Positions 10,865 through 21,324 of a stretch of DNA of 64,000 nt are shown piece by piece. The notes beneath the pieces are model-generated. The model saw only the letters and a list, made by a program, of their open reading frames with translations. It did not search any database and had not been told where the DNA came from. Source of the DNA: Polyangiales bacterium (GTDB lineage Bacteria; Myxococcota_A; Polyangia; Polyangiales; Ga0077539); assembly GCA_044229975.1 (NCBI GenBank), contig JBGARZ010000001.1, positions 512,001 to 576,000 on the forward strand, given 5' to 3'. The position numbers and the translations under genes are program-made. Every line of letters begins with the position of its first letter. The first letter of the stretch is position 1.

Positions 10865-12079
10865 TCACGCGCCCGCGCGTCGCACCCGTCGGGCGCTCGC
10901 TTCGATGAGCATCCCGTGGAGTTCTTCCGAGCGCGGCTCCCAGCCGTAGCGGTTTTGCACCCGCAGCCGCGCCGCGTCGGCGATGCCCTGCGCCCGCTCG
11001 CGGTCGTGCAGCAGCGCCAGCACCGCCTCGGCCATCGGCGCGCCCTGCTCACCGTACGGCGCCACCACGAGCTGCGTGCCCGCCTCGGCCTCGATGCCCT
11101 CCGCGGCGGCCGGCGTGCACACCACCGGGACGCCCATGGCCATCGCTTCGAGCACCTTGTTCTGCACGCCGCGCGCGACGCGCAGCGGGATGACGCACAC
11201 CGCGCAGCCCGTCACGTGCGCGCGGATGTCGGCGACGTACCCGGTGACCGTCACGCCCTCGATGGAGGCCAGCGCCTGCACCTCCGGCGGCGGCCGCGAG
11301 CCCGCGATGACCACGCGGAAGTCCGGGTGGCGCGCCCTCACGCGGGGCATCACCTCGCGCACGAGGAAGAGCGCCGCCTCCACGTTGGCGTGATAGTCCA
11401 TCGCGCCGAAGAACACCGCCGACGCATCCGTCGGCTTCTTCGCCGCGGGCGCGAAGTACTCGGTGTCGACGCCGTTGGGCAGCGTTCGCGCGTCGCACCC
11501 CGGCGCGATGGCCGCGAGCAGCACCTTCTCGCGATCGGCCGTCACGGTGGAGATCACCGCGCGCCGCGCTACTTCGCGCTCATAGCGCTCCAGCGTCGAC
11601 GCCTCGCGCCGGTACACCGCCCCCATCGGGAAGCGCGCCTCTTCGGCGTAGGCCCGCCACTTGGCCGAGTCGACGTCGACGAAGTCCATCACCAGCGGAA
11701 CGTCCGGGTGCCGCAGCGCGTACGGCGCCATCGAGCTGCTCTCGGCGAGGATCGCGTCGGGGTTGATCTCCCGCACCGCGCGGTCGACGTCGGCCTCGAA
11801 GCGCGCGCTGCCGAACACCGGCAGCGTCATCGGCCGCTCGCCCAGCAGCGACGGAATGGCCTTCACCTTCTGCCAGCGCATGTCGAGCGGAACGAGGTTG
11901 ACCGACGCGAAGTGCCGCCGCAGCAGCGCCGTGTGCGCGACGTCCGTCGGCGGCTCGGCGAAGGCCATGAGGTGCACCTCGCAGCGCTTCGCGAGGCGCG
12001 TGAGCAGGTGGTGCGTGCGGATCTTGTCGCCCTTGTCGGGAGGGAAGGGCGTGCGGTGCGTGAGCGCGAGCACCTTCAT
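10865..12079 (-). CDS. GT4 glycosyltransferase (TIGR03087-like sugar transferase)
   Basis: 'MKVLALTHRTPFPPDKGDKIRT', 'DFVDVDSAKW', 'FFGAMDYHANVEA', 'ARGVQNKVLEAMAMG'. ATG at 12079 overlaps the upstream stop (ATGA). Confidence 0.9.
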   Translation of the reverse strand: MKVLALTHRTPFPPDKGDKIRTHHLLTRLAKRCEVHLMAFAEPPTDVAHTALLRRHFASVNLVPLDMRWQKVKAIPSLLGERPMTLPVFGSARFEADVDRAVREINPDAILAESSSMAPYALRHPDVPLVMDFVDVDSAKWRAYAEEARFPMGAVYRREASTLERYEREVARRAVISTVTADREKVLLAAIAPGCDARTLPNGVDTEYFAPAAKKPTDASAVFFGAMDYHANVEAALFLVREVMPRVRARHPDFRVVIAGSRPPPEVQALASIEGVTVTGYVADIRAHVTGCAVCVIPLRVARGVQNKVLEAMAMGVPVVCTPAAAEGIEAEAGTQLVVAPYGEQGAPMAEAVLALLHDRERAQGIADAARLRVQNRYGWEPRSEELHGMLIEASARRVRRAGA

Positions 12080-12702
12080 GACGGCCTCACCCACGCCTTG
12101 GTCACCGGGTCGCGGCGACGGATGATGCGCGCGGGGTTGCCGCCCACGATGCTGTCGTCGGGCACCGCGTCGACGACCACCGAGCCCGCCGCCACGACGC
12201 AGCGCTCGCCCACGTCGGCCATCACCAGCGCGCCGTTGCCGAGCCAGGTGTTGCGGCCGACGCGGATCTGGTCGAAGCGCCCCGGCTGGTCTTGCACCGG
12301 CGCGTCGGGGTCGTCGATGCCGTGCTGGTTCTTGCCCGAGAGCACGTGAACCCCCGAGCCCAGGGTGACGTGATCGTGGAGCAGCGCGCGCCCGATGCTG
12401 CAATTGGCCCCGATGTAGACGCCCTTCGAGATCACCGCGTCGGGCGTCGAGAAGGTCGTCCCCCATTGGATGCACGTGTCGGGGTGGCACTCCGCCAGCA
12501 CCGCCCCGTAGAACGCCCGGCGCACGAGCTGACCCGTCAGCCCCGGCACCATCGCGAGCGCCTGCGAGTACCCCGAGAAGAGCGTTCGCAGCCTGTGCTC
12601 ATCTGCCCCGCGCGTCTCCGCGCGGAAGGCCACCACCACCGGCAGCACCGCGCCCCGCGCCGCCGCGAGCGCCACCATCTTCACCAGTCGTCGCGCGTCC
12701 AT
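12076..12702 (-). CDS. Hexapeptide-repeat (LbH) sugar O-acyltransferase
   Basis: Hexapeptide repeats 'ISKGVYIGANCSIG', 'VGRNTWLGNGALV', 'VAAGSVV..VGGNPARII'. AAGGAG RBS before ATG at 12702. Confidence 0.85.
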   Translation of the reverse strand: MDARRLVKMVALAAARGAVLPVVVAFRAETRGADEHRLRTLFSGYSQALAMVPGLTGQLVRRAFYGAVLAECHPDTCIQWGTTFSTPDAVISKGVYIGANCSIGRALLHDHVTLGSGVHVLSGKNQHGIDDPDAPVQDQPGRFDQIRVGRNTWLGNGALVMADVGERCVVAAGSVVVDAVPDDSIVGGNPARIIRRRDPVTKAWVRPS

Positions 12703-12722
12703 CGCTGCTCCTTCGCTGCCCT

Positions 12723-13847
12723 TCAGCGCCGCACGCCCAGGGCGTCGTACACGCGCAGGTACCGCTCCGCCCGCTTCGCCGGGTCGTGCCGTTCCACCGC
12801 CCGCTGCCTCGCCGCGGCCACCCGCCGCGCGCGCTCGTCGGGCCTCGCCACGCAGTCCACCACCGCCTTCGCGATGGTCTCCGCCGACTCCGGGTCGACG
12901 ATCCACGCCATCTCGCCGTCGTCGGCCACCTCGGGGACACCGCCCACCCGCGTCGCCACCACCGGCAACCCGAGCGTCATCGCTTCGAGCAGCGCGTTGG
13001 GCATCGCCTCGGAGCGCGACGGCATCACCAGCATGTCGCACGCCTTGTAGACCACACCGACGTGCTTCTGGTGCCCCAGGAAACGCACCGCAACCCCGAG
13101 GCCGAGCTCCTTCGCGAGCGACTCCAGCATCGCGCGATCGGGGCCGTCACCCGCCAGCGCGAAGGTCACGTCGGCGCCCTGGGAGCGCGCCTGCGCGAGC
13201 GCTCTCAGCGCGAGGTCTTGCCCCTTCTCGTGCGAGAGCCGACCCACCACCGCCGCCACGAACTCCCCCTGCGGGATCCCGAGCTGCGCCCGCGCCTCAT
13301 CGCGGCTGAGCGGCGTCGAGATGTCCCGCGCGTCGACCGCGTTGGGGATCACGACCACCTTGTCGGCGCTCACGCCCTCGTGCTCGACGATGCGCCGCGC
13401 GCTCTCGGCCACGGCCACGACGCGGTTGGCCTTCGGCAACGACCACGCGTCGATACGGTGGTAGCGCTTCACCTTGTCGTTCTCGGCGGTCCACCCGTGG
13501 TGGTGGCCGATCCAGGGGACGCGCCGCGCCGCGCGCACCGCCATCGCGATGAGGTGCGGCTTGTACGAGTGGCTCTGCACCACCTTCGCGCCGATGCGCC
13601 ACGCGGTGTGCACCGCCTTCGCGATGATGGTCGGGTCGAAGGCCCCGCGCTCTTGAATCTCGTGCACCGTCAGCGCGCCATCGGACAGCTTGTCGAGCGG
13701 CGGAACGGGCCCGGCCCCCTTCCCCCGGAGGATGGCCACATGGAGGCGCACGTCGGGCGGCAGCGCGCGAGAGAGATGGATGAGACCACGCGCCGGCCCG
13801 GTGACCACCGGCGCATCCAGAAACGACAAGACAACCGTCGGTGCCAT
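12723..13847 (-). CDS. GT4 glycosyltransferase
   Basis: 'VIPNAVD', 'VGRLSHEKGQD', 'GDGPDR', 'PSRSEAMPNALLEAM', 'TRVGGVPE'. Confidence 0.9.
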   Translation of the reverse strand: MAPTVVLSFLDAPVVTGPARGLIHLSRALPPDVRLHVAILRGKGAGPVPPLDKLSDGALTVHEIQERGAFDPTIIAKAVHTAWRIGAKVVQSHSYKPHLIAMAVRAARRVPWIGHHHGWTAENDKVKRYHRIDAWSLPKANRVVAVAESARRIVEHEGVSADKVVVIPNAVDARDISTPLSRDEARAQLGIPQGEFVAAVVGRLSHEKGQDLALRALAQARSQGADVTFALAGDGPDRAMLESLAKELGLGVAVRFLGHQKHVGVVYKACDMLVMPSRSEAMPNALLEAMTLGLPVVATRVGGVPEVADDGEMAWIVDPESAETIAKAVVDCVARPDERARRVAAARQRAVERHDPAKRAERYLRVYDALGVRR

Positions 13848-13860
13848 CGGGATTGGTTCT

Positions 13861-14670
13861 CTACCGTCGCGTCGGGCCGGCGTCGGGAGTGCCAGCGTCC
13901 GTAGCCGCAAGCGTCGGGGCGGGCGTCGGGGCGGTGCGGCCGCGCCCTTCGAGGATCACCGCGCGGATGAGTCCGGTCATGCGCTGTCGCCCGGCGGCGT
14001 TGGGGTGCAGGCCATCATCGGAGAGCGAGTCGGGCAGGTAGCCGTCCTCGTCGCCGAGGGCCTGGGCGTAGTCGAGCAGCGTCTCCTGGCGCATGCGGGC
14101 CTGGTCGCGCACCCACTCGTTGAAGCGACGGATGAGCGGGGTCGCGGTGCCGCGAGCTTCGGTGCGATCCCACGCGCGGGTGACCGGAACGGTGGTGGCG
14201 AGCACGACCTTGCTGCCGTGGGTGCGCACCGCGTCGGCCATGGCCGCGTAGTAGAACTGGGTCTCCTCGAAGGGCGGCGCGTCGGGCAGGAGATTGATCG
14301 CGCACATCTTGATGACGACCATCTCGGGGGTGAGCTGGAGGGCGTCGGGCTCGATGCGGAGGTACTGCTGCCAGACGAGCTGACCCGAGTCGCCGCGGTT
14401 GACGAAGGGGAGCCCGGGAAACTCCCCCGCGAGGTCGAGCTGCTCGGTGATGCTCGCTCCGAGAAACACCACGCGACCCGGGACGACCCCCTGGTTGCGG
14501 AGCCGCTCGTTGTCGGCCCGGTAGCGCCCGCGGTGGGCCGGGTCGCTGTGCAGCGTGTGCCAGCGGTCGTGCCAGGTCTTCGCGTCGGAGCGATAGCGCC
14601 AGGCTTTGTAGGAGACGACGCCGAGGCCGGTCAGGAGCAGGGCCATCGCGCCCTGGAGGAGTCGGTTCAT
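13861..14670 (-). CDS. SGNH/GDSL-family esterase with N-terminal membrane anchor
   Basis: Block I 'VFLGASIT', block II 'NRGDSG', block V 'DGLHPN'. Lies in a polysaccharide cluster. Confidence 0.85.
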   Translation of the reverse strand: MNRLLQGAMALLLTGLGVVSYKAWRYRSDAKTWHDRWHTLHSDPAHRGRYRADNERLRNQGVVPGRVVFLGASITEQLDLAGEFPGLPFVNRGDSGQLVWQQYLRIEPDALQLTPEMVVIKMCAINLLPDAPPFEETQFYYAAMADAVRTHGSKVVLATTVPVTRAWDRTEARGTATPLIRRFNEWVRDQARMRQETLLDYAQALGDEDGYLPDSLSDDGLHPNAAGRQRMTGLIRAVILEGRGRTAPTPAPTLAATDAGTPDAGPTRR

Positions 14671-14789
14671 CGCGGGCGATCACTCCTGCGCGTCGGGTCA
14701 GATGCTCGACACGCGCGGCGCATCATGCCATATCGCCCGGCCACGGCGGGTGCCTGAAACACCGCACGGAAGGAACGTTCCGGTCCACG

Positions 14790-16430
14790 ATGGTCGCCTC
14801 ATCCCTCGCGCTGCTGGTCGCGATCCCCATGCAGCTCGCAGGCGCGGCCGGGGTCGAGCTCGCTGGTGGCTACGACTCGACGGTGCTCAACCAGAGCACG
14901 CTCAACTACGGCGACGGCGCCCTCGCCCGCGGCGCGGTCGACCTCCAGTTGGGGCATCGCACCGAGACGGTCCGGCAGCTCCTTCGCACCCGCGGCGAGT
15001 ACTACTTCACCGACGGCGAGGGGCGCCGCATCGACGAGGGCGACTTCCTCTCCATCACCCGCTACGCGCTCCACGCCGAGCCGAGCGACACCTGGCAGAT
15101 CACGGGCGAGGCGACGTACACCCTCGGCCAGTCGTCGCTGCTGCTCGGGCGCACGGGCCGCGCGTTTACGTCGTTTCAGCGCGGCGTGTACGGCGACTAC
15201 ACCGGGCAGGTGCAGGCGCAGCACGACTTCAGCGAGCGCTTCCGCGCGGGGCTGCTCGCGGGCGTGCTCGGCCGCCACGCGGTGGACATCCCCGTCGAGG
15301 TCACGCGCAACAACATGCTGACCTTCGTGTCGGCCCTCGAGACCTCCTACGAGGTCAACGACGAGAACTCCATCCTCGTGGCCGCGCGCGGCGAGTACTT
15401 CCTCGTCGACGGCTACCTCGACTGGGTGCCGCGCATCCTCGGCTACGGCGGGTTGCGCCACCGCTTCGGCGAAAACATCACCCTCACCGTCCTCGGCGGC
15501 GTCGACTCCCTCGCCGACCAGAACGACACCTCCGACTTCTTCGTCGGCCCGTACGGCAACGCCGCGCTCTCCGTGGCCATCCCCGACGAGCACCTCGCGT
15601 TCGGCCTCGGCACCCGCTACGAGTACGCCATCGTCGCCACCACGCGATGCAACCGCCCGGTGCTGGGCCAGCCATGCCCCGCGAGCGAGATCATCCCCGG
15701 CGGCACCGGCCGCGTGCTCGGCAGCAACCTGAGCTTCCTGTGGCGCCCCGGTGAAGGGCGCGTGGCCTTCACGGGCGACGTCAACGCCGACTACGGCACC
15801 ACCGAGACCGCCGTCCCCGGCATGGTCGGCGCCACCCGCGAGATCGAGTCGCTCAACCTGTCGGCGCTGGCGGGCGTGCGCTTCATCGTGTCGCGCAACC
15901 TCTCGTTCTTCGCCCGCTACAACTTCCTGTACTCGGACATCGACATGGGCGGTCCGGCCCCGCTGCCTGGTGTCATCAACGTGCTGGTGCGCCACGTCGC
16001 CTTCGCCGGCCTCACCTTCGCGCTCGGCACCGACGACGACGGGGTCACCGAGCCGATGATTCCGCTCGAAGAGATCGAAGCGTTGCAGGACGCGCAGGGC
16101 GGCTCCGGCGGAGCCCCGACCGGCGGCGAGAGCGACCCGCTCACGAGCGACCCCTTCGACCTCGTGGCCGCCGACGACGCCGCCAACCGGGTGGGCGAAG
16201 CGGGCTCCGGGCTCATCCCCCCGCCCGTCGACCCCAACGCTCCGGTCGACCCCAACGCCCCGCCGCCGCCGCGGCCGCGCACGGCGACCCAGCCGAGCAC
16301 CCACGGCTCCACGCAACGATCGACCGCGCCGGTGAACCACGGCGGCGCACCGGTCGCCCCCAACACGCCACCGTCCGGCTCGACGCCGGGTGACACCGGC
16401 CTCGCACCGCAGGGAGAATCCAACCCATGA
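14790..16430 (+). CDS. Putative outer-membrane beta-barrel (EpsX/Wzp-like) with a Pro-rich C-terminal tail
   Basis: Signal peptide and alternating amphipathic beta-strands with aromatic girdles (e.g. 'LSFFARYNFLYS', 'AFAGLTF'). First gene of the copolymerase-OPX operon. Confidence 0.6.
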   Translation: MVASSLALLVAIPMQLAGAAGVELAGGYDSTVLNQSTLNYGDGALARGAVDLQLGHRTETVRQLLRTRGEYYFTDGEGRRIDEGDFLSITRYALHAEPSDTWQITGEATYTLGQSSLLLGRTGRAFTSFQRGVYGDYTGQVQAQHDFSERFRAGLLAGVLGRHAVDIPVEVTRNNMLTFVSALETSYEVNDENSILVAARGEYFLVDGYLDWVPRILGYGGLRHRFGENITLTVLGGVDSLADQNDTSDFFVGPYGNAALSVAIPDEHLAFGLGTRYEYAIVATTRCNRPVLGQPCPASEIIPGGTGRVLGSNLSFLWRPGEGRVAFTGDVNADYGTTETAVPGMVGATREIESLNLSALAGVRFIVSRNLSFFARYNFLYSDIDMGGPAPLPGVINVLVRHVAFAGLTFALGTDDDGVTEPMIPLEEIEALQDAQGGSGGAPTGGESDPLTSDPFDLVAADDAANRVGEAGSGLIPPPVDPNAPVDPNAPPPPRPRTATQPSTHGSTQRSTAPVNHGGAPVAPNTPPSGSTPGDTGLAPQGESNP

Positions 16431-18004
16431 CCATGGGAGAAAAGGAAGACCAGCCGCTCTCGCTCAAAGACCTGCTGGCCAACTACGCCGCGCTCGCGCG
16501 ACGGGGCTTGCGGTACTGGAAGCGCGGCGCCGCCATCTTCACGGTGATCTTCATCGCCGGGATGGCGTGGGTCGTGACGCGACCGCGCACCTACCGCTCC
16601 GAGGCGCGCTTCCAGGTGCAGGAGCAGGAGCGCTCCGACGGCAACGGGCCGGGCGCCGAGGAGGTGCAGCGCTCCATCGACAACCGGCTGTCGCAGGTCT
16701 ACGGGTCGCGCACCAACATCCTCGCGCTCATCACGCGGCTGCACCTGTTTCCGCTGCTCCAGGGGAAGACGTCGGAGACCAAGCTCGCCGAGCTGTTCTG
16801 GGGCGCGCTCGACCGCAAGGTGGAGACCGACACCGTGCAGATCGGGTTCAAGTACGGCGACCCCCAGGACGCGCAGCGGGTGGTGCGCGGGCTCATCGAC
16901 CTCTTCGTCAACGCGCGGCGCAACACCGCCGTCGAGCGAGCGCGCGAGGCCTTCCAGACCATCGACGCGCAGTTTCACCAGCTGGAGCAGTCGCTCGCCG
17001 ACCGGCAGCAGTCGTTCGACCAGTTCGTGCTGGCCAACCCGGAGATGGTCGAGATCGTGCGGCGCCGACTCCAGGGCGGGCCGGTCATCAACGTGGGCGG
17101 CCCCGGCCAGCAGGTCGCGCGCCCGGAGCCGGAGAACCCCCGCGACTCGATGCGTACGCGCCGCCTGCGCACCCGCATCGCGCAGCTCACGGCGAGCGTG
17201 GAGTCGCTGCGCAACCCGGGGCAGGCGGCCGCGCCGCAGGCCGACGAGCCGGCCGCCCTCACCGAGCTGCGTACGCGGGTGCAGACCAAGCGCACCGAGG
17301 TCGAGGGCCTGCGTCAGCGCTTCTCCGCCGACTACCCCACGCGGGCCGCCGCCGAGCGTGAGCTCACCGCCATGAACAACGAGCTCGCCGCCGCCGTCGC
17401 GCGCTTCCGCGGCGCTCAGCAGAGCCAGGCCAACCTCTCGCAGTCCGAGCGCGAGCAGCGCATCGAGCAGGTCAACCGCGACCTCCAGGCGGCGCGCATC
17501 GAGCTCGCCGACAGCCAGCGCTCCGACAGCGCCGGTAGCGGCGCGCACCCCACCGCGCCCGCGCCCGTCCCCACCGCGCGCAACCCGCTCACCCGCACCA
17601 CGTTGGTCGAGGTCGAGGCCGAGTACACGCGGCTCAACACCGACGTCACCACCACCCGCGCCAGCTACCAGGAGCTCCTGCGGCGCCGCCTCGACTCGCA
17701 GGCCCTCCTGCGCCGGGCCGAGCTCAGCGGCGGCGAGCAGATTCGCGTGCTCGACGCCCCGTCGCTGCCCATCGAGCCCGAGCCGCCGGGGCGCACCAAG
17801 CTCGGGATGATCGTCTGCATCTTGGCCGGGCTCTTCGCCCTCGGCACCGCCCTCGTCTCGGGCTTCATCGACACCCGCATCTACGACCAGGACGACCTGC
17901 GTCGCTGGGGTGAGCTCGTCGAGCTGCCGTTCATCCCCGACCTGCACCTCGATGGCAGCGGCACCCGCCGTCCGCTCTCCACCCCGCCCGACCCTTCGGG
18001 ATAG
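16427..18004 (+). CDS. Polysaccharide copolymerase (Wzz/Wzc-N, GumC-like) without kinase domain
   Basis: TM1 then 'PRTYRSEARFQV', long coiled coil, 'IRVLDAPSLPIEPEPP' before TM2, 'DTRIYDQDDL'. No Walker motif. Confidence 0.85.
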   Translation: MTMGEKEDQPLSLKDLLANYAALARRGLRYWKRGAAIFTVIFIAGMAWVVTRPRTYRSEARFQVQEQERSDGNGPGAEEVQRSIDNRLSQVYGSRTNILALITRLHLFPLLQGKTSETKLAELFWGALDRKVETDTVQIGFKYGDPQDAQRVVRGLIDLFVNARRNTAVERAREAFQTIDAQFHQLEQSLADRQQSFDQFVLANPEMVEIVRRRLQGGPVINVGGPGQQVARPEPENPRDSMRTRRLRTRIAQLTASVESLRNPGQAAAPQADEPAALTELRTRVQTKRTEVEGLRQRFSADYPTRAAAERELTAMNNELAAAVARFRGAQQSQANLSQSEREQRIEQVNRDLQAARIELADSQRSDSAGSGAHPTAPAPVPTARNPLTRTTLVEVEAEYTRLNTDVTTTRASYQELLRRRLDSQALLRRAELSGGEQIRVLDAPSLPIEPEPPGRTKLGMIVCILAGLFALGTALVSGFIDTRIYDQDDLRRWGELVELPFIPDLHLDGSGTRRPLSTPPDPSG

Positions 18005-18057
18005 TCCCGCTGCCAGCGATTGCCACCGAAGCCCGCGGGTATGATACATCGCGGGCC

Positions 18058-18639
18058 ATGCGTGGACTGCGCCCCCTCTGCCTCGCCGCCCTCCTCTCCC
18101 TCCCCGCCTGCCGCGGAACGCTCTCGGGCCCTTGGCCGCCCGTCGAGTCGGGCGTGCAGGAGTACCGCGTGGGTGCGGGCGACATCGTCCGCATCTCGGT
18201 GTTCGGCAACGCCGAGCTCAACACCCGGGTGACGGTTCGTCCCGACGGCCGCATCACGCTGCCGCTCCTCAACGAGGTCACCGTCTCGGGCAAGACCATC
18301 AACGACATCACCCGCGAGGTCACCGAAGGGTACCGCCGCTTCCAGCAGGACGCGCGGGTCGCCGTGGTCGTCGAGGAGGTGCACAGCTACCGGGTGTTCG
18401 TGACCGGCAAGGTCATCCGCCCGGGTGACTTCGAGTCGCGCACCCCCGTCAACGTGGTGCAGGCCCTCGCCCTCGCCGGCGGCGGCGCGCGCGGCGCCAA
18501 CCTCGATCACATCATCGTGCTGCGCCGGGCCACCAACGGCCGCGAGGAGCGCTACGAGGTGTCCATCAACGACATCCTCGAAGGCCAGATGCAGCAGAAC
18601 TTCACGCTGCGCTCCGGCGACACCGTCGTCGTCCCCTGA
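18058..18639 (+). CDS. Short OPX (Wza-like) polysaccharide export protein
   Basis: PES motif 'YRVGAGDIVRISVFGNAEL..VTVRPDGRITLPLL', one SLBB domain 'VFVTGKVIRPG..ALALAGG', ends 'LRSGDTVVVP'. Confidence 0.9.
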   Translation: MRGLRPLCLAALLSLPACRGTLSGPWPPVESGVQEYRVGAGDIVRISVFGNAELNTRVTVRPDGRITLPLLNEVTVSGKTINDITREVTEGYRRFQQDARVAVVVEEVHSYRVFVTGKVIRPGDFESRTPVNVVQALALAGGGARGANLDHIIVLRRATNGREERYEVSINDILEGQMQQNFTLRSGDTVVVP

Positions 18640-20430: not shown

Positions 20431-21324
20431 TCAGTACTCGCCCCGACCCGCGATGCGGATGCGCGACGCCGACTGCGTCTCGTCCCACAGCTCCCCCTCG
20501 CGCCACGCGACCTCGCCCGTGGTGCCCCAGCCCACCTCCTTCACGGTGGTGCCTTCGATGTTCATCCAGAGCAGGCCGCCGTCCGAGCGCGTCGCCTGGT
20601 CGAGGCACGCCACCCGCGTCGTCGCCCCGTTGTCCCAGTACAGCGTCGCCGCGTGCGGAACATGGATGTGCCCGCACAGCACCCAGGTCGGCCGCAGCCG
20701 CGTGACCAGCAGCGCCGCGTAGGGGTTGCCCACCTGCGGCCAGTGCGCGCGACGGATGCCCCGCGCACCCACCACCGCGACGGCGCTCTCGGTCCCGGCG
20801 ATGCCCCGCGGCCACTCGTGCATCAAAAGCAGGTCGGCGCGATCGACCGCACACGCCGCGTCGACATCGTCCTTGCGGAAGTACCCCGCCTGCTTGTTGG
20901 TCTCTGCGTTGGACGCCGGAACCCTCGGCCGAAGGTACCGCGTCGGCGCGTAGATGCCCGACAGGAAGCCCACCCGCAGCCCGTCGATGACCCGCGACCC
21001 CGCGCGGCCCAGGTAGTGGACCCCGGGCGCGAGCGTTCCGCCGTCGGGCATCACGTCGAGCTCTTCGAAGCTCTCGTTGTTGCCGCCCACGAAATAGAAC
21101 GGCCGCGCCATCTGCCGCTCGCCCGTCGCGTACGCCGAAAACTCCGCGGGCATGTTGCGCTTGGTCGCCTTGCGCCGGTGATCGTCGGGCGTCGAGAAGG
21201 TCTCCACATCGCCGACACACAACACCGAGGACACACGCTCGCCCCGCGCCTGCTCCAGCGCGTCCACCCACTCCTCGACCCGGAAGAACCTTCCGTGCAC
21301 ATCTCCGACCACGGCCACGAGCAT
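20431..21324 (-). CDS. Calcineurin-like metallophosphoesterase resembling RNA lariat debranching enzyme Dbr1
   Basis: Motifs GDVHG, CVGDV, FVGGNNE, LMHEWP, CGHIH, plus Dbr1-like 'GGTLAPGVHYLGRAG..GLRVGFLSGIY'. Confidence 0.8.
   Translation of the reverse strand: MLVAVVGDVHGRFFRVEEWVDALEQARGERVSSVLCVGDVETFSTPDDHRRKATKRNMPAEFSAYATGERQMARPFYFVGGNNESFEELDVMPDGGTLAPGVHYLGRAGSRVIDGLRVGFLSGIYAPTRYLRPRVPASNAETNKQAGYFRKDDVDAACAVDRADLLLMHEWPRGIAGTESAVAVVGARGIRRAHWPQVGNPYAALLVTRLRPTWVLCGHIHVPHAATLYWDNGATTRVACLDQATRSDGGLLWMNIEGTTVKEVGWGTTGEVAWREGELWDETQSASRIRIAGRGEY

Follow-up and report, generated by a model that had tools for sequence, protein, structure and literature searches.

A myxobacterial subfamily of Dbr1-like metallophosphoesterases with asparagine at the general-acid position

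Dbr1 is described as the sole enzyme that opens lariats, and it has been studied as a eukaryotic protein. In the Entamoeba histolytica enzyme (EhDbr1; 4PEF/4PEH/5K77/5K78), residues 130-158 form a lariat-recognition loop with an invariant Arg158, which PMC4176325 describes as absent in other metallophosphoesterases (MPEs). Mutants of the yeast enzyme bear on its catalytic residues. According to PMC5113202, H86N strains phenocopy dbr1-delta (citing Khalid 2005), yet the H86N enzyme keeps 42% of its activity on bis-p-nitrophenylphosphate, for which the authors invoke leaving-group pKa; the C11D enzyme is left with 7%. Related substitutions exist in other binuclear phosphodiesterases. In CthPnkp, H264N brings a gain on aryl diesters and a loss on 2',3'-cAMP, the 2',3'-cyclic phosphodiesterase being selectively impaired, and MJ0936 is a natural His-to-Asn phosphodiesterase that is defective on cyclic nucleotides (both from PMC2190708).

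In a full-text literature search that left subscription journals largely uncovered and bioRxiv supplements outside its scope, we came upon no account of Dbr1 homologues in bacteria. Term searches of a 2025 DBR1 review and of the myxobacterial phosphatome paper with its supplements gave no mention of them, and DBR1 was excluded from the spliceosome-origin phylogeny of Vosseberg 2023 (PMC9887622). The automatic label "lariat debranching enzyme" is already attached to several JGI records and to Stigmatella EAU62490.1. The two bacterial groups discussed below, an Asn-type subfamily that we call clade A and a His-type group ("clade C"), are real and apparently unpublished. A radiation of Dbr1-like proteins in bacteria, lying outside the eukaryotic clade, makes both the origin of Dbr1 and bacterial debranching of msDNA or group II lariats testable, and the genetically tractable Myxococcus xanthus DK1622 carries genes of both types.

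The gene and its kinship with Dbr1

The clade A gene considered here lies in a 64,000-nucleotide stretch of a Polyangiales genome (the window).

20431..21324, minus strand: Dbr1-clade metallophosphoesterase ORF of the GNNE subfamily (clade A), 297 aa

The ORF starts with ATG at 21324 and stops with TGA at 20431. Its codon pattern marks it as a real gene, because GC3 is 0.92 against a GC2 of 0.51 and because the third codon position dominates the differences from eight close relatives (e.g., 25/14/81 at positions 1/2/3). The closest homologues, 60-89% identical, come from metagenome-assembled genomes (MAGs) labelled Myxococcales, Myxococcaceae, Polyangiales, Myxococcota or (delta)proteobacteria. 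A search for sigma-70 promoter-like sites turned up none for the gene. The M. xanthus orthologue is spanned by contigs in 4/4 RNA libraries examined, although contigs cannot show transcription. Beside the gene, positions 10865-18639 of the window hold an ordinary exopolysaccharide-type cluster with glycosyltransferase-like ORFs, a weak Wzz match and a polysaccharide export protein.

The original prediction was that this protein is collinear with eukaryotic Dbr1, and every motif on which it relied is present in the translation in the order given. The kinship itself is confirmed by sequence and by structure. A phmmer search of the PDB with the clade A protein ranked EhDbr1 first (E 1.7e-19), followed by CWF19L1 (3.5e-4), with no generic MPE at E ≤ 10, and a 44-sequence family profile run against solved structures gave Dbr1 at 3e-29, CWF19L1 at 6e-10 and LpxH at 0.13 or above. 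With an AlphaFold model of the protein (pLDDT 91.5), Foldseek, which had been suggested as a check against Dbr1, CWF19 and other MPEs, put Dbr1 first at TM 0.77, compared with at most 0.52 for the generic MPEs listed. VIA-align likewise gave Dbr1 a Z of 29.6 (251 residues of the MPE core at rmsd 2.2), CWF19L1 21.1 and the next fold 17.4. A generic Icc/YfcE-type MPE can therefore be dismissed, since Dbr1 is the best match by phmmer, profile, Foldseek and VIA-align. Sequence identity to a Cys-type Dbr1 is 31% over 268 residues. The likeness far exceeds chance, and the protein belongs to the Dbr1 clade by homology, Dbr1 and CWF19L1 standing well above generic MPEs in both sequence and structure.

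General annotation resources are less specific. Pfam returned only PF00149 (above cut-off) and PF12850, NCBIfam gave no match, PADLOC found 0 families of known anti-phage systems at E ≤ 0.001, PHROGs offered a weak match to a generic MPE only, and ESM Atlas matches fell in unnamed MPE clusters.

Active site and loops

A protein search yielded 182 homologues among 3317 candidates, and conservation was scored on the query plus 120 listed homologues (121 rows). The features that follow are numbered by residue of the clade A protein.

21292..21306, minus strand: motif I, GDVHG, residues 7-11, with Asp8 where Dbr1 has Cys14 and His10 where it has His16; D8 and H10 in 119/119 rows with a residue there
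21208..21213, minus strand: motif II, GD; Asp39 corresponds to Dbr1 Asp45, the bridging metal ligand; 121/121
21139..21207, minus strand: branch-pocket loop, residues 40-62; Glu41 for Gln47, a basic RKxxKR patch and Arg56 for Tyr64
21073..21084, minus strand: GNNE, residues 81-84; Asn82 a metal ligand, Asn83 at the position of the general-acid His91/His86; 121/121
20875..20961, minus strand: equivalent of the lariat-recognition loop, Ser122-Arg150, 29 residues, collinear with EhDbr1 130-158; Arg150 corresponds to invariant Arg158
20809..20820, minus strand: HEWP; His169 corresponds to Dbr1 His180, a metal ligand; 121/121
20662..20673, minus strand: GHxH; His219 and His221 correspond to Dbr1 His230 and His232; 121/121
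20476..20541, minus strand: C-terminal tail of clade A, residues 262-283, with conserved Gly/Trp; subfamily-specific and not aligned to the Dbr1 C-terminal domain

A calcineurin-like fold with DxH / GD / GN / H / HxH metal ligands places the protein in the binuclear MPE superfamily. All seven ligand positions (D8, H10, D39, N82, H169, H219 and H221) are invariant among the rows with a residue there, and six of the seven ligands are those of Dbr1. The exception, Asp for the first-ligand Cys (Cys14/Cys11), had been noticed at the outset together with GNNE for GNHE and the missing C-terminal domain, and each of these differences stands: Asp8 in 119/119 rows, GNNE at residues 81-84, and no match to PF05011 by Pfam at E ≤ 0.01. 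Where Dbr1 has the PF05011 domain, clade A has its short Trp-rich tail; residues 261-280 are modelled at pLDDT 97-98, and the VIA-align range shared with Dbr1 covers residues 1-261.

The loss of the general-acid histidine extends throughout the subfamily. Asn occupies the position in 121/121 rows and also in 200/200 distinct stretches in which the motif was located among 263 strong matches, and GNNE also occurs in 1/60 Cys-type sequences. A sequencing artefact at Asn83 is ruled out, the codon being AAC in 8/8 close relatives and Asn being found across the family. Further departures from Dbr1 are the change of Tyr64 to Arg56, the loss of Arg50 and Tyr74, a branch-pocket loop two residues shorter, and altered RNA contacts in the lariat-recognition loop. 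Alignment mapping onto the 14 residues reported as important for yeast Dbr1 (PMC5113202) shows nine retained in the protein, Glu at the position of Asp180, and Cys11, Arg45, Tyr69 and His86 lost.

In Dbr1, His16 and Tyr64 clamp the branch base; clade A retains the His as His10 and has Arg56 at the Tyr position in 120/121 rows. Around it, E41, R51 and K55 are present in 121/121 rows and K52 in 120/121. The mean net charge of loop 40-62 is +1.3 in clade A (n=9), compared with -1.1 in His-type bacterial sequences (n=67) and +0.3 in Cys-type Dbr1 (n=60). We place Arg56 and the basic patch through alignment to EhDbr1, and from it infer their position in the pocket. His49, found in 111/121 rows, could be a candidate compensating acid.

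For the lariat-recognition loop, a segment of similar length after the SGI motif had been anticipated, and the family profile indeed aligns Ser122-Arg150 to EhDbr1 130-158 without a gap, with Arg150 in 121/121 rows. Among the residues that contact the 3' arm in Dbr1 (Ile132, Lys134, Phe136, Phe155 and His156), Ile124 alone is kept, the other positions being Ala126, Thr128, Gly147 and Tyr148. Two residues kept from Dbr1 set clade A apart from most His-type bacterial sequences: Arg150 is present in 100% of clade A, 100% of Cys-type and 19% of His-type bacterial sequences, and Asp242 in 100%, 88% and 12%, respectively. Simple decay of clade A is disfavoured because these two residues are kept as in Cys-type Dbr1, and their retention suggests that the loop still serves a nucleic-acid-like substrate.

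Wider family, distribution and reverse transcriptases

Among 1.84 billion representatives, a profile search matched 2425 at E ≤ 0.001. Among the best 150 of these, clade A comes first, then Asp/His-type proteins (mostly 250-350 aa), then Cys-type proteins. PF05011 was found in 25/31 Cys-type sequences scanned and in 0 of the Asp-type sequences scanned (72 of the best 150 were scanned in all). The Cys-type representatives, which carry no taxonomy labels, we infer to be eukaryotic Dbr1. His-type sequences (n=67) have His in 99%, Arg50 in 93% and Tyr, His or Phe at the Tyr64 position in 82%. A third group, clade B, also has GNHE. The search for longer proteins with informative fusions, a weak one, gave one match in 7992 candidates, which resembles read-through of a His-type gene. 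Two longer proteins, P0328 (with low-complexity inserts) and P0382, are nested within the bacterial His-type group in a FastTree phylogeny and are possibly eukaryotic acquisitions.

An IQ-TREE phylogeny was built under LG+G4 from 62 rows hand-picked from 164, with EhDbr1 and CWF19L1 left out and the bootstrap incompletely settled. Its 19 Dbr1-type rows form one clade (100/100), so a recent transfer from eukaryotes nested within Dbr1 is not seen. Clade A is likewise supported at 100/100 and joins 18/20 His-type rows at 95/95, with deeper nodes weakly resolved. Asn83 is most simply derived from a bacterial His-type ancestral state, because clade A groups with the His-type rows. AU tests did not reject trees in which clade A was forced to be sister to Dbr1 (p-AU 0.35) or forced together with haloarchaeal GNNE proteins (p-AU 0.24). 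The latter are shorter Dbr1-like MPEs encoded at haloarchaeal plasmid loci (L088:5872-6510 and L089:5866-6495). At the deepest branch with Cys-type Dbr1 (100/100) are P0427, a Carpediemonas membranifera protein (KAG9393657.1), and P0321, both of which have Asp for the hallmark Cys.

Clade A behaves as a core gene in its lineages. Within the window's family all 24 of 24 sampled relatives have it, against 0/16 other genomes of that order; in Myxococcia it is present in 95/201 genomes, a set that includes one unpublished genome (G385). Clade A is thus kept despite being the natural counterpart of a yeast C11D + H86N double change, which implies that the protein has some other job. A phage-borne copy, which an anti-retron role might have predicted, was absent from the GenBank phage set, and IMG/VR scans returned nothing beyond distant MPEs and a single His-type gene carried on an island.

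Co-occurrence with retrons or group II introns, followed here through their reverse transcriptases (RTs), had been suggested as a check. The window's genome does contain several RTs.

L192-L198 (contigs C4, C14, C32, C34, C38 and C39 of the window's genome, G000): RT loci

They comprise five near-identical group II intron copies, which likely reflect recent spread, one type XIII retron and one UG36, the nearest about 175 kb from the window's gene. Strict co-occurrence did not hold up across genomes. The 201 Myxococcia genomes divide into 73 with clade A and a retron RT, 22 with clade A only, 20 with the RT only and 86 with neither, so that 22/95 clade A genomes have no type XIII RT. Fifteen of the 21 clade-A-only genomes tested have no RT match to PF00078 at all, a count to be read with caution because many are MAGs and may be incomplete. 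A tblastn search with these three RTs through 295 loci, whose flanks reach at most about 6 kb and are often shorter, matched the RT loci only and no RT near a family gene. The distribution of clade A is independent of reverse transcriptases.

Gene neighbourhoods, read from crude gene calls, differ between lineages. An FGE-sulfatase-like gene, FKBP and P450 lie near the gene in the window's lineage, and Myxococcaceae-type loci have uvrA (38/80), an Ig-repeat gene (36), an AddB-like gene (26) and Ada (6). By these calls the two lineages have no neighbour in common, and none hints at a substrate in both.

Proposed chemistry and alternatives

What might an enzyme of the Dbr1 clade do without its general acid? 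With moderate confidence, we propose that the clade A protein does not debranch but is a two-metal hydrolase acting on phosphate bonds that have good leaving groups, namely phosphoanhydrides or linkages activated in another way, on nucleotides or the ends of nucleic acids. Its active site is probably metal-loaded and catalytically active, because the metal-ligand set is intact and tightly conserved. In the proposed mechanism, two metals would activate a water for attack on phosphorus; since no acid is there to protonate a sugar hydroxyl, departure would be confined to low-pKa leaving groups, such as the phosphate of a phosphoanhydride. The invariant Arg51/Lys52/Lys55/Arg56 patch, standing in place of the base-stacking Tyr, would hold the leaving phosphate, and a nucleic-acid or nucleotide arm would be bound by the loop that has been kept. 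Ribose-hydroxyl leaving groups, as in lariats, msDNA, 2'-5' oligoA and cyclic nucleotides, are disfavoured because the loss of the acid is fixed, and an anionic leaving group is suggested because a basic patch replaces the base-stacking Tyr. Candidate substrates would include adenylylated 5' ends, NpnN or NAD caps, ADP-ribose adducts and dinucleoside polyphosphates.

This substrate class is drawn from mutants of other enzymes, and carry-over between scaffolds is imperfect, as the 7% activity of yeast C11D illustrates. MJ0936 shares with clade A an Asn at the phosphate-binding His (PMC2190708), but it is a distant fold relative only (1s3l, Z 11.1) without the Dbr1 loop. For the clade A gene alone, the likely outcome is a new substrate for an MPE subfamily.

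A second reading, which we consider rather doubtful, is that the protein is a catalytically silent or weak binder, like Drn1/CWF19L1 or Dbr1-H86A, whose metal site and loop would hold branched or phosphorylated nucleic acid or a nucleotide uncut. Dbr1-H86A binds branched RNA uncut in a Mn-dependent manner with a Kd of 53 nM (PMC5113202), the non-catalytic paralogue CWF19L1/Drn1 is the second-best structural match, and the His loss is fixed throughout clade A. CWF19L1/Drn1, a pseudo-phosphoesterase, shares the Dbr1-clade fold (Z 21.1; profile E 6e-10) and also departs from Dbr1 catalysis. However, Drn1-type pseudo-enzymes lost catalytic residues, as reported in PMC4105757, whereas the seven ligand positions of clade A are invariant, and neither metal-ligand loss nor Drn1/CWF19L1's C-terminal CwfJ domains are found in the clade A protein. 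A Drn1-like partner role is unlikely, as a His-type paralogue is missing from 62/95 clade A genomes; the window's genome has none either, its sole other match being a clade B copy. The branch-stacking Tyr is gone as well.

It was originally suggested that the protein may be a bacterial debranching enzyme or 2'-5' nucleotide hydrolase, and of this the Dbr1 homology stands, lariat-recognition loop included; the activity is unlikely for the GNNE subfamily. A true bacterial 2'-5' phosphodiesterase would debranch msDNA or group II lariats, or cut 2'-5' oligonucleotides, using another acid or Arg-assisted stabilisation of the leaving group, and Glu41 with Arg56 could read a guanine branch. Each method ranks Dbr1 first, the loop is present at full length with Arg150, and RTs of group II introns (five copies) and of one type XIII retron are encoded in the window's genome. 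The Carpediemonas Dbr1-like protein has Asp for Cys, and so the Asp change alone is not disqualifying. In msDNA the branch is at G. The residue at the Gln47 position can bond guanine N1/N2 (PMC4176325), and it is Glu in 121/121 clade A rows; the exchange could favour guanine and so leaves room for the msDNA idea, the more so in the case of the His-type group. Nevertheless, 2'-5' debranching by clade A appears unlikely, because the general-acid His is Asn in every member and H86N phenocopies dbr1-delta in yeast (PMC5113202). Tyr64, Arg50 and 4/5 loop contacts are also missing, as is the C-terminal domain, which PMC4176325 reports to be required in EhDbr1. The RT evidence points the same way: no RT at any family locus among the 295 loci screened, 22 genomes with the gene and no type XIII RT, 20 with the RT and no gene, and 15/21 with no RT found. 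In a broader version, a bacterial Dbr1 family would have given rise to the spliceosomal debranching enzyme and, in myxobacteria, would have divided into a His-type enzyme and the core Asn/Arg-type; the latter would open 2'-5' nucleic acids branched at guanine, retron msDNA for example, without the general-acid His. We regard this scenario as improbable; if true, debranching would be seen in bacteria for the first time, and by a catalytic route new to the Dbr1 fold.

We think it very unlikely that clade A is a DNA-repair end processor, stripping an activated blocking group or a protein adduct off DNA ends together with UvrA or AddAB. Of 80 GTDB loci, 38 have uvrA within 6 kb (in several it is directly divergent), 26 have an AddB-like nuclease and 6 have Ada/AlkA. 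All of the loci with these neighbours are Myxococcaceae-type, and none is among the 22 closest loci, those of the window's lineage (L003-L024), so the association may be shared synteny. The M. xanthus clade A gene and its neighbours we take to be MXAN_2612-2615, the tags being guessed. Under these guessed tags, they are not in the table of DNA-damage-responsive proteins that lists uvrA (PMC12288472).

With clade A itself read as a hydrolase of bonds with good leaving groups, the debranching idea suits its His-retaining sister group better, and that group would be the better candidate for debranching. Both types are present in M. xanthus DK1622, clade A as ABF88707.1 and the His-type as ABF90703.1; clade A is 37% identical to the latter. 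The His-type group resembles clade A in its Asp at motif I, Glu41 and lack of a C-terminal domain; unlike clade A, it keeps the His, Arg50 and Tyr, His or Phe at Tyr64, and it is accessory (33/201 Myxococcia genomes), whereas clade A is core in its lineages. The paralogue, assigned by score, has GNHE in 36/36 sequences examined. It occurs in 33/95 clade A genomes, all 33 with a type XIII retron RT, and in 0/22 clade A genomes without a retron RT (Fisher p 2e-5, which is overstated because kin are not independent). We treat this tie to the retron RT as a lead only.

The loci of these relatives offer further starting points. Clade B, represented in the window's genome by L002:1057-2145 on contig C19 (GNHE, E 1e-13 to EhDbr1), has no conserved neighbours among its adjacent genes, which include HEPN, Fic, HipA, SocA and AbiEii-type genes and suggest that it sits in mobile or defence islands. 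Members of the His-type group are found at L246:1489-2319 (genome G301), as P0263 (the M. xanthus protein ABF90703.1), and at L202-L207 and L276-L295; in one lineage the gene has a PLD-like gene on one side and a DEAD-box RNA helicase gene on the other. On an IMG/VR contig that also carries Fic and ParB-like genes (L235:5001-5777), a His-type gene lies directly downstream of pglZ and brxL (BREX).
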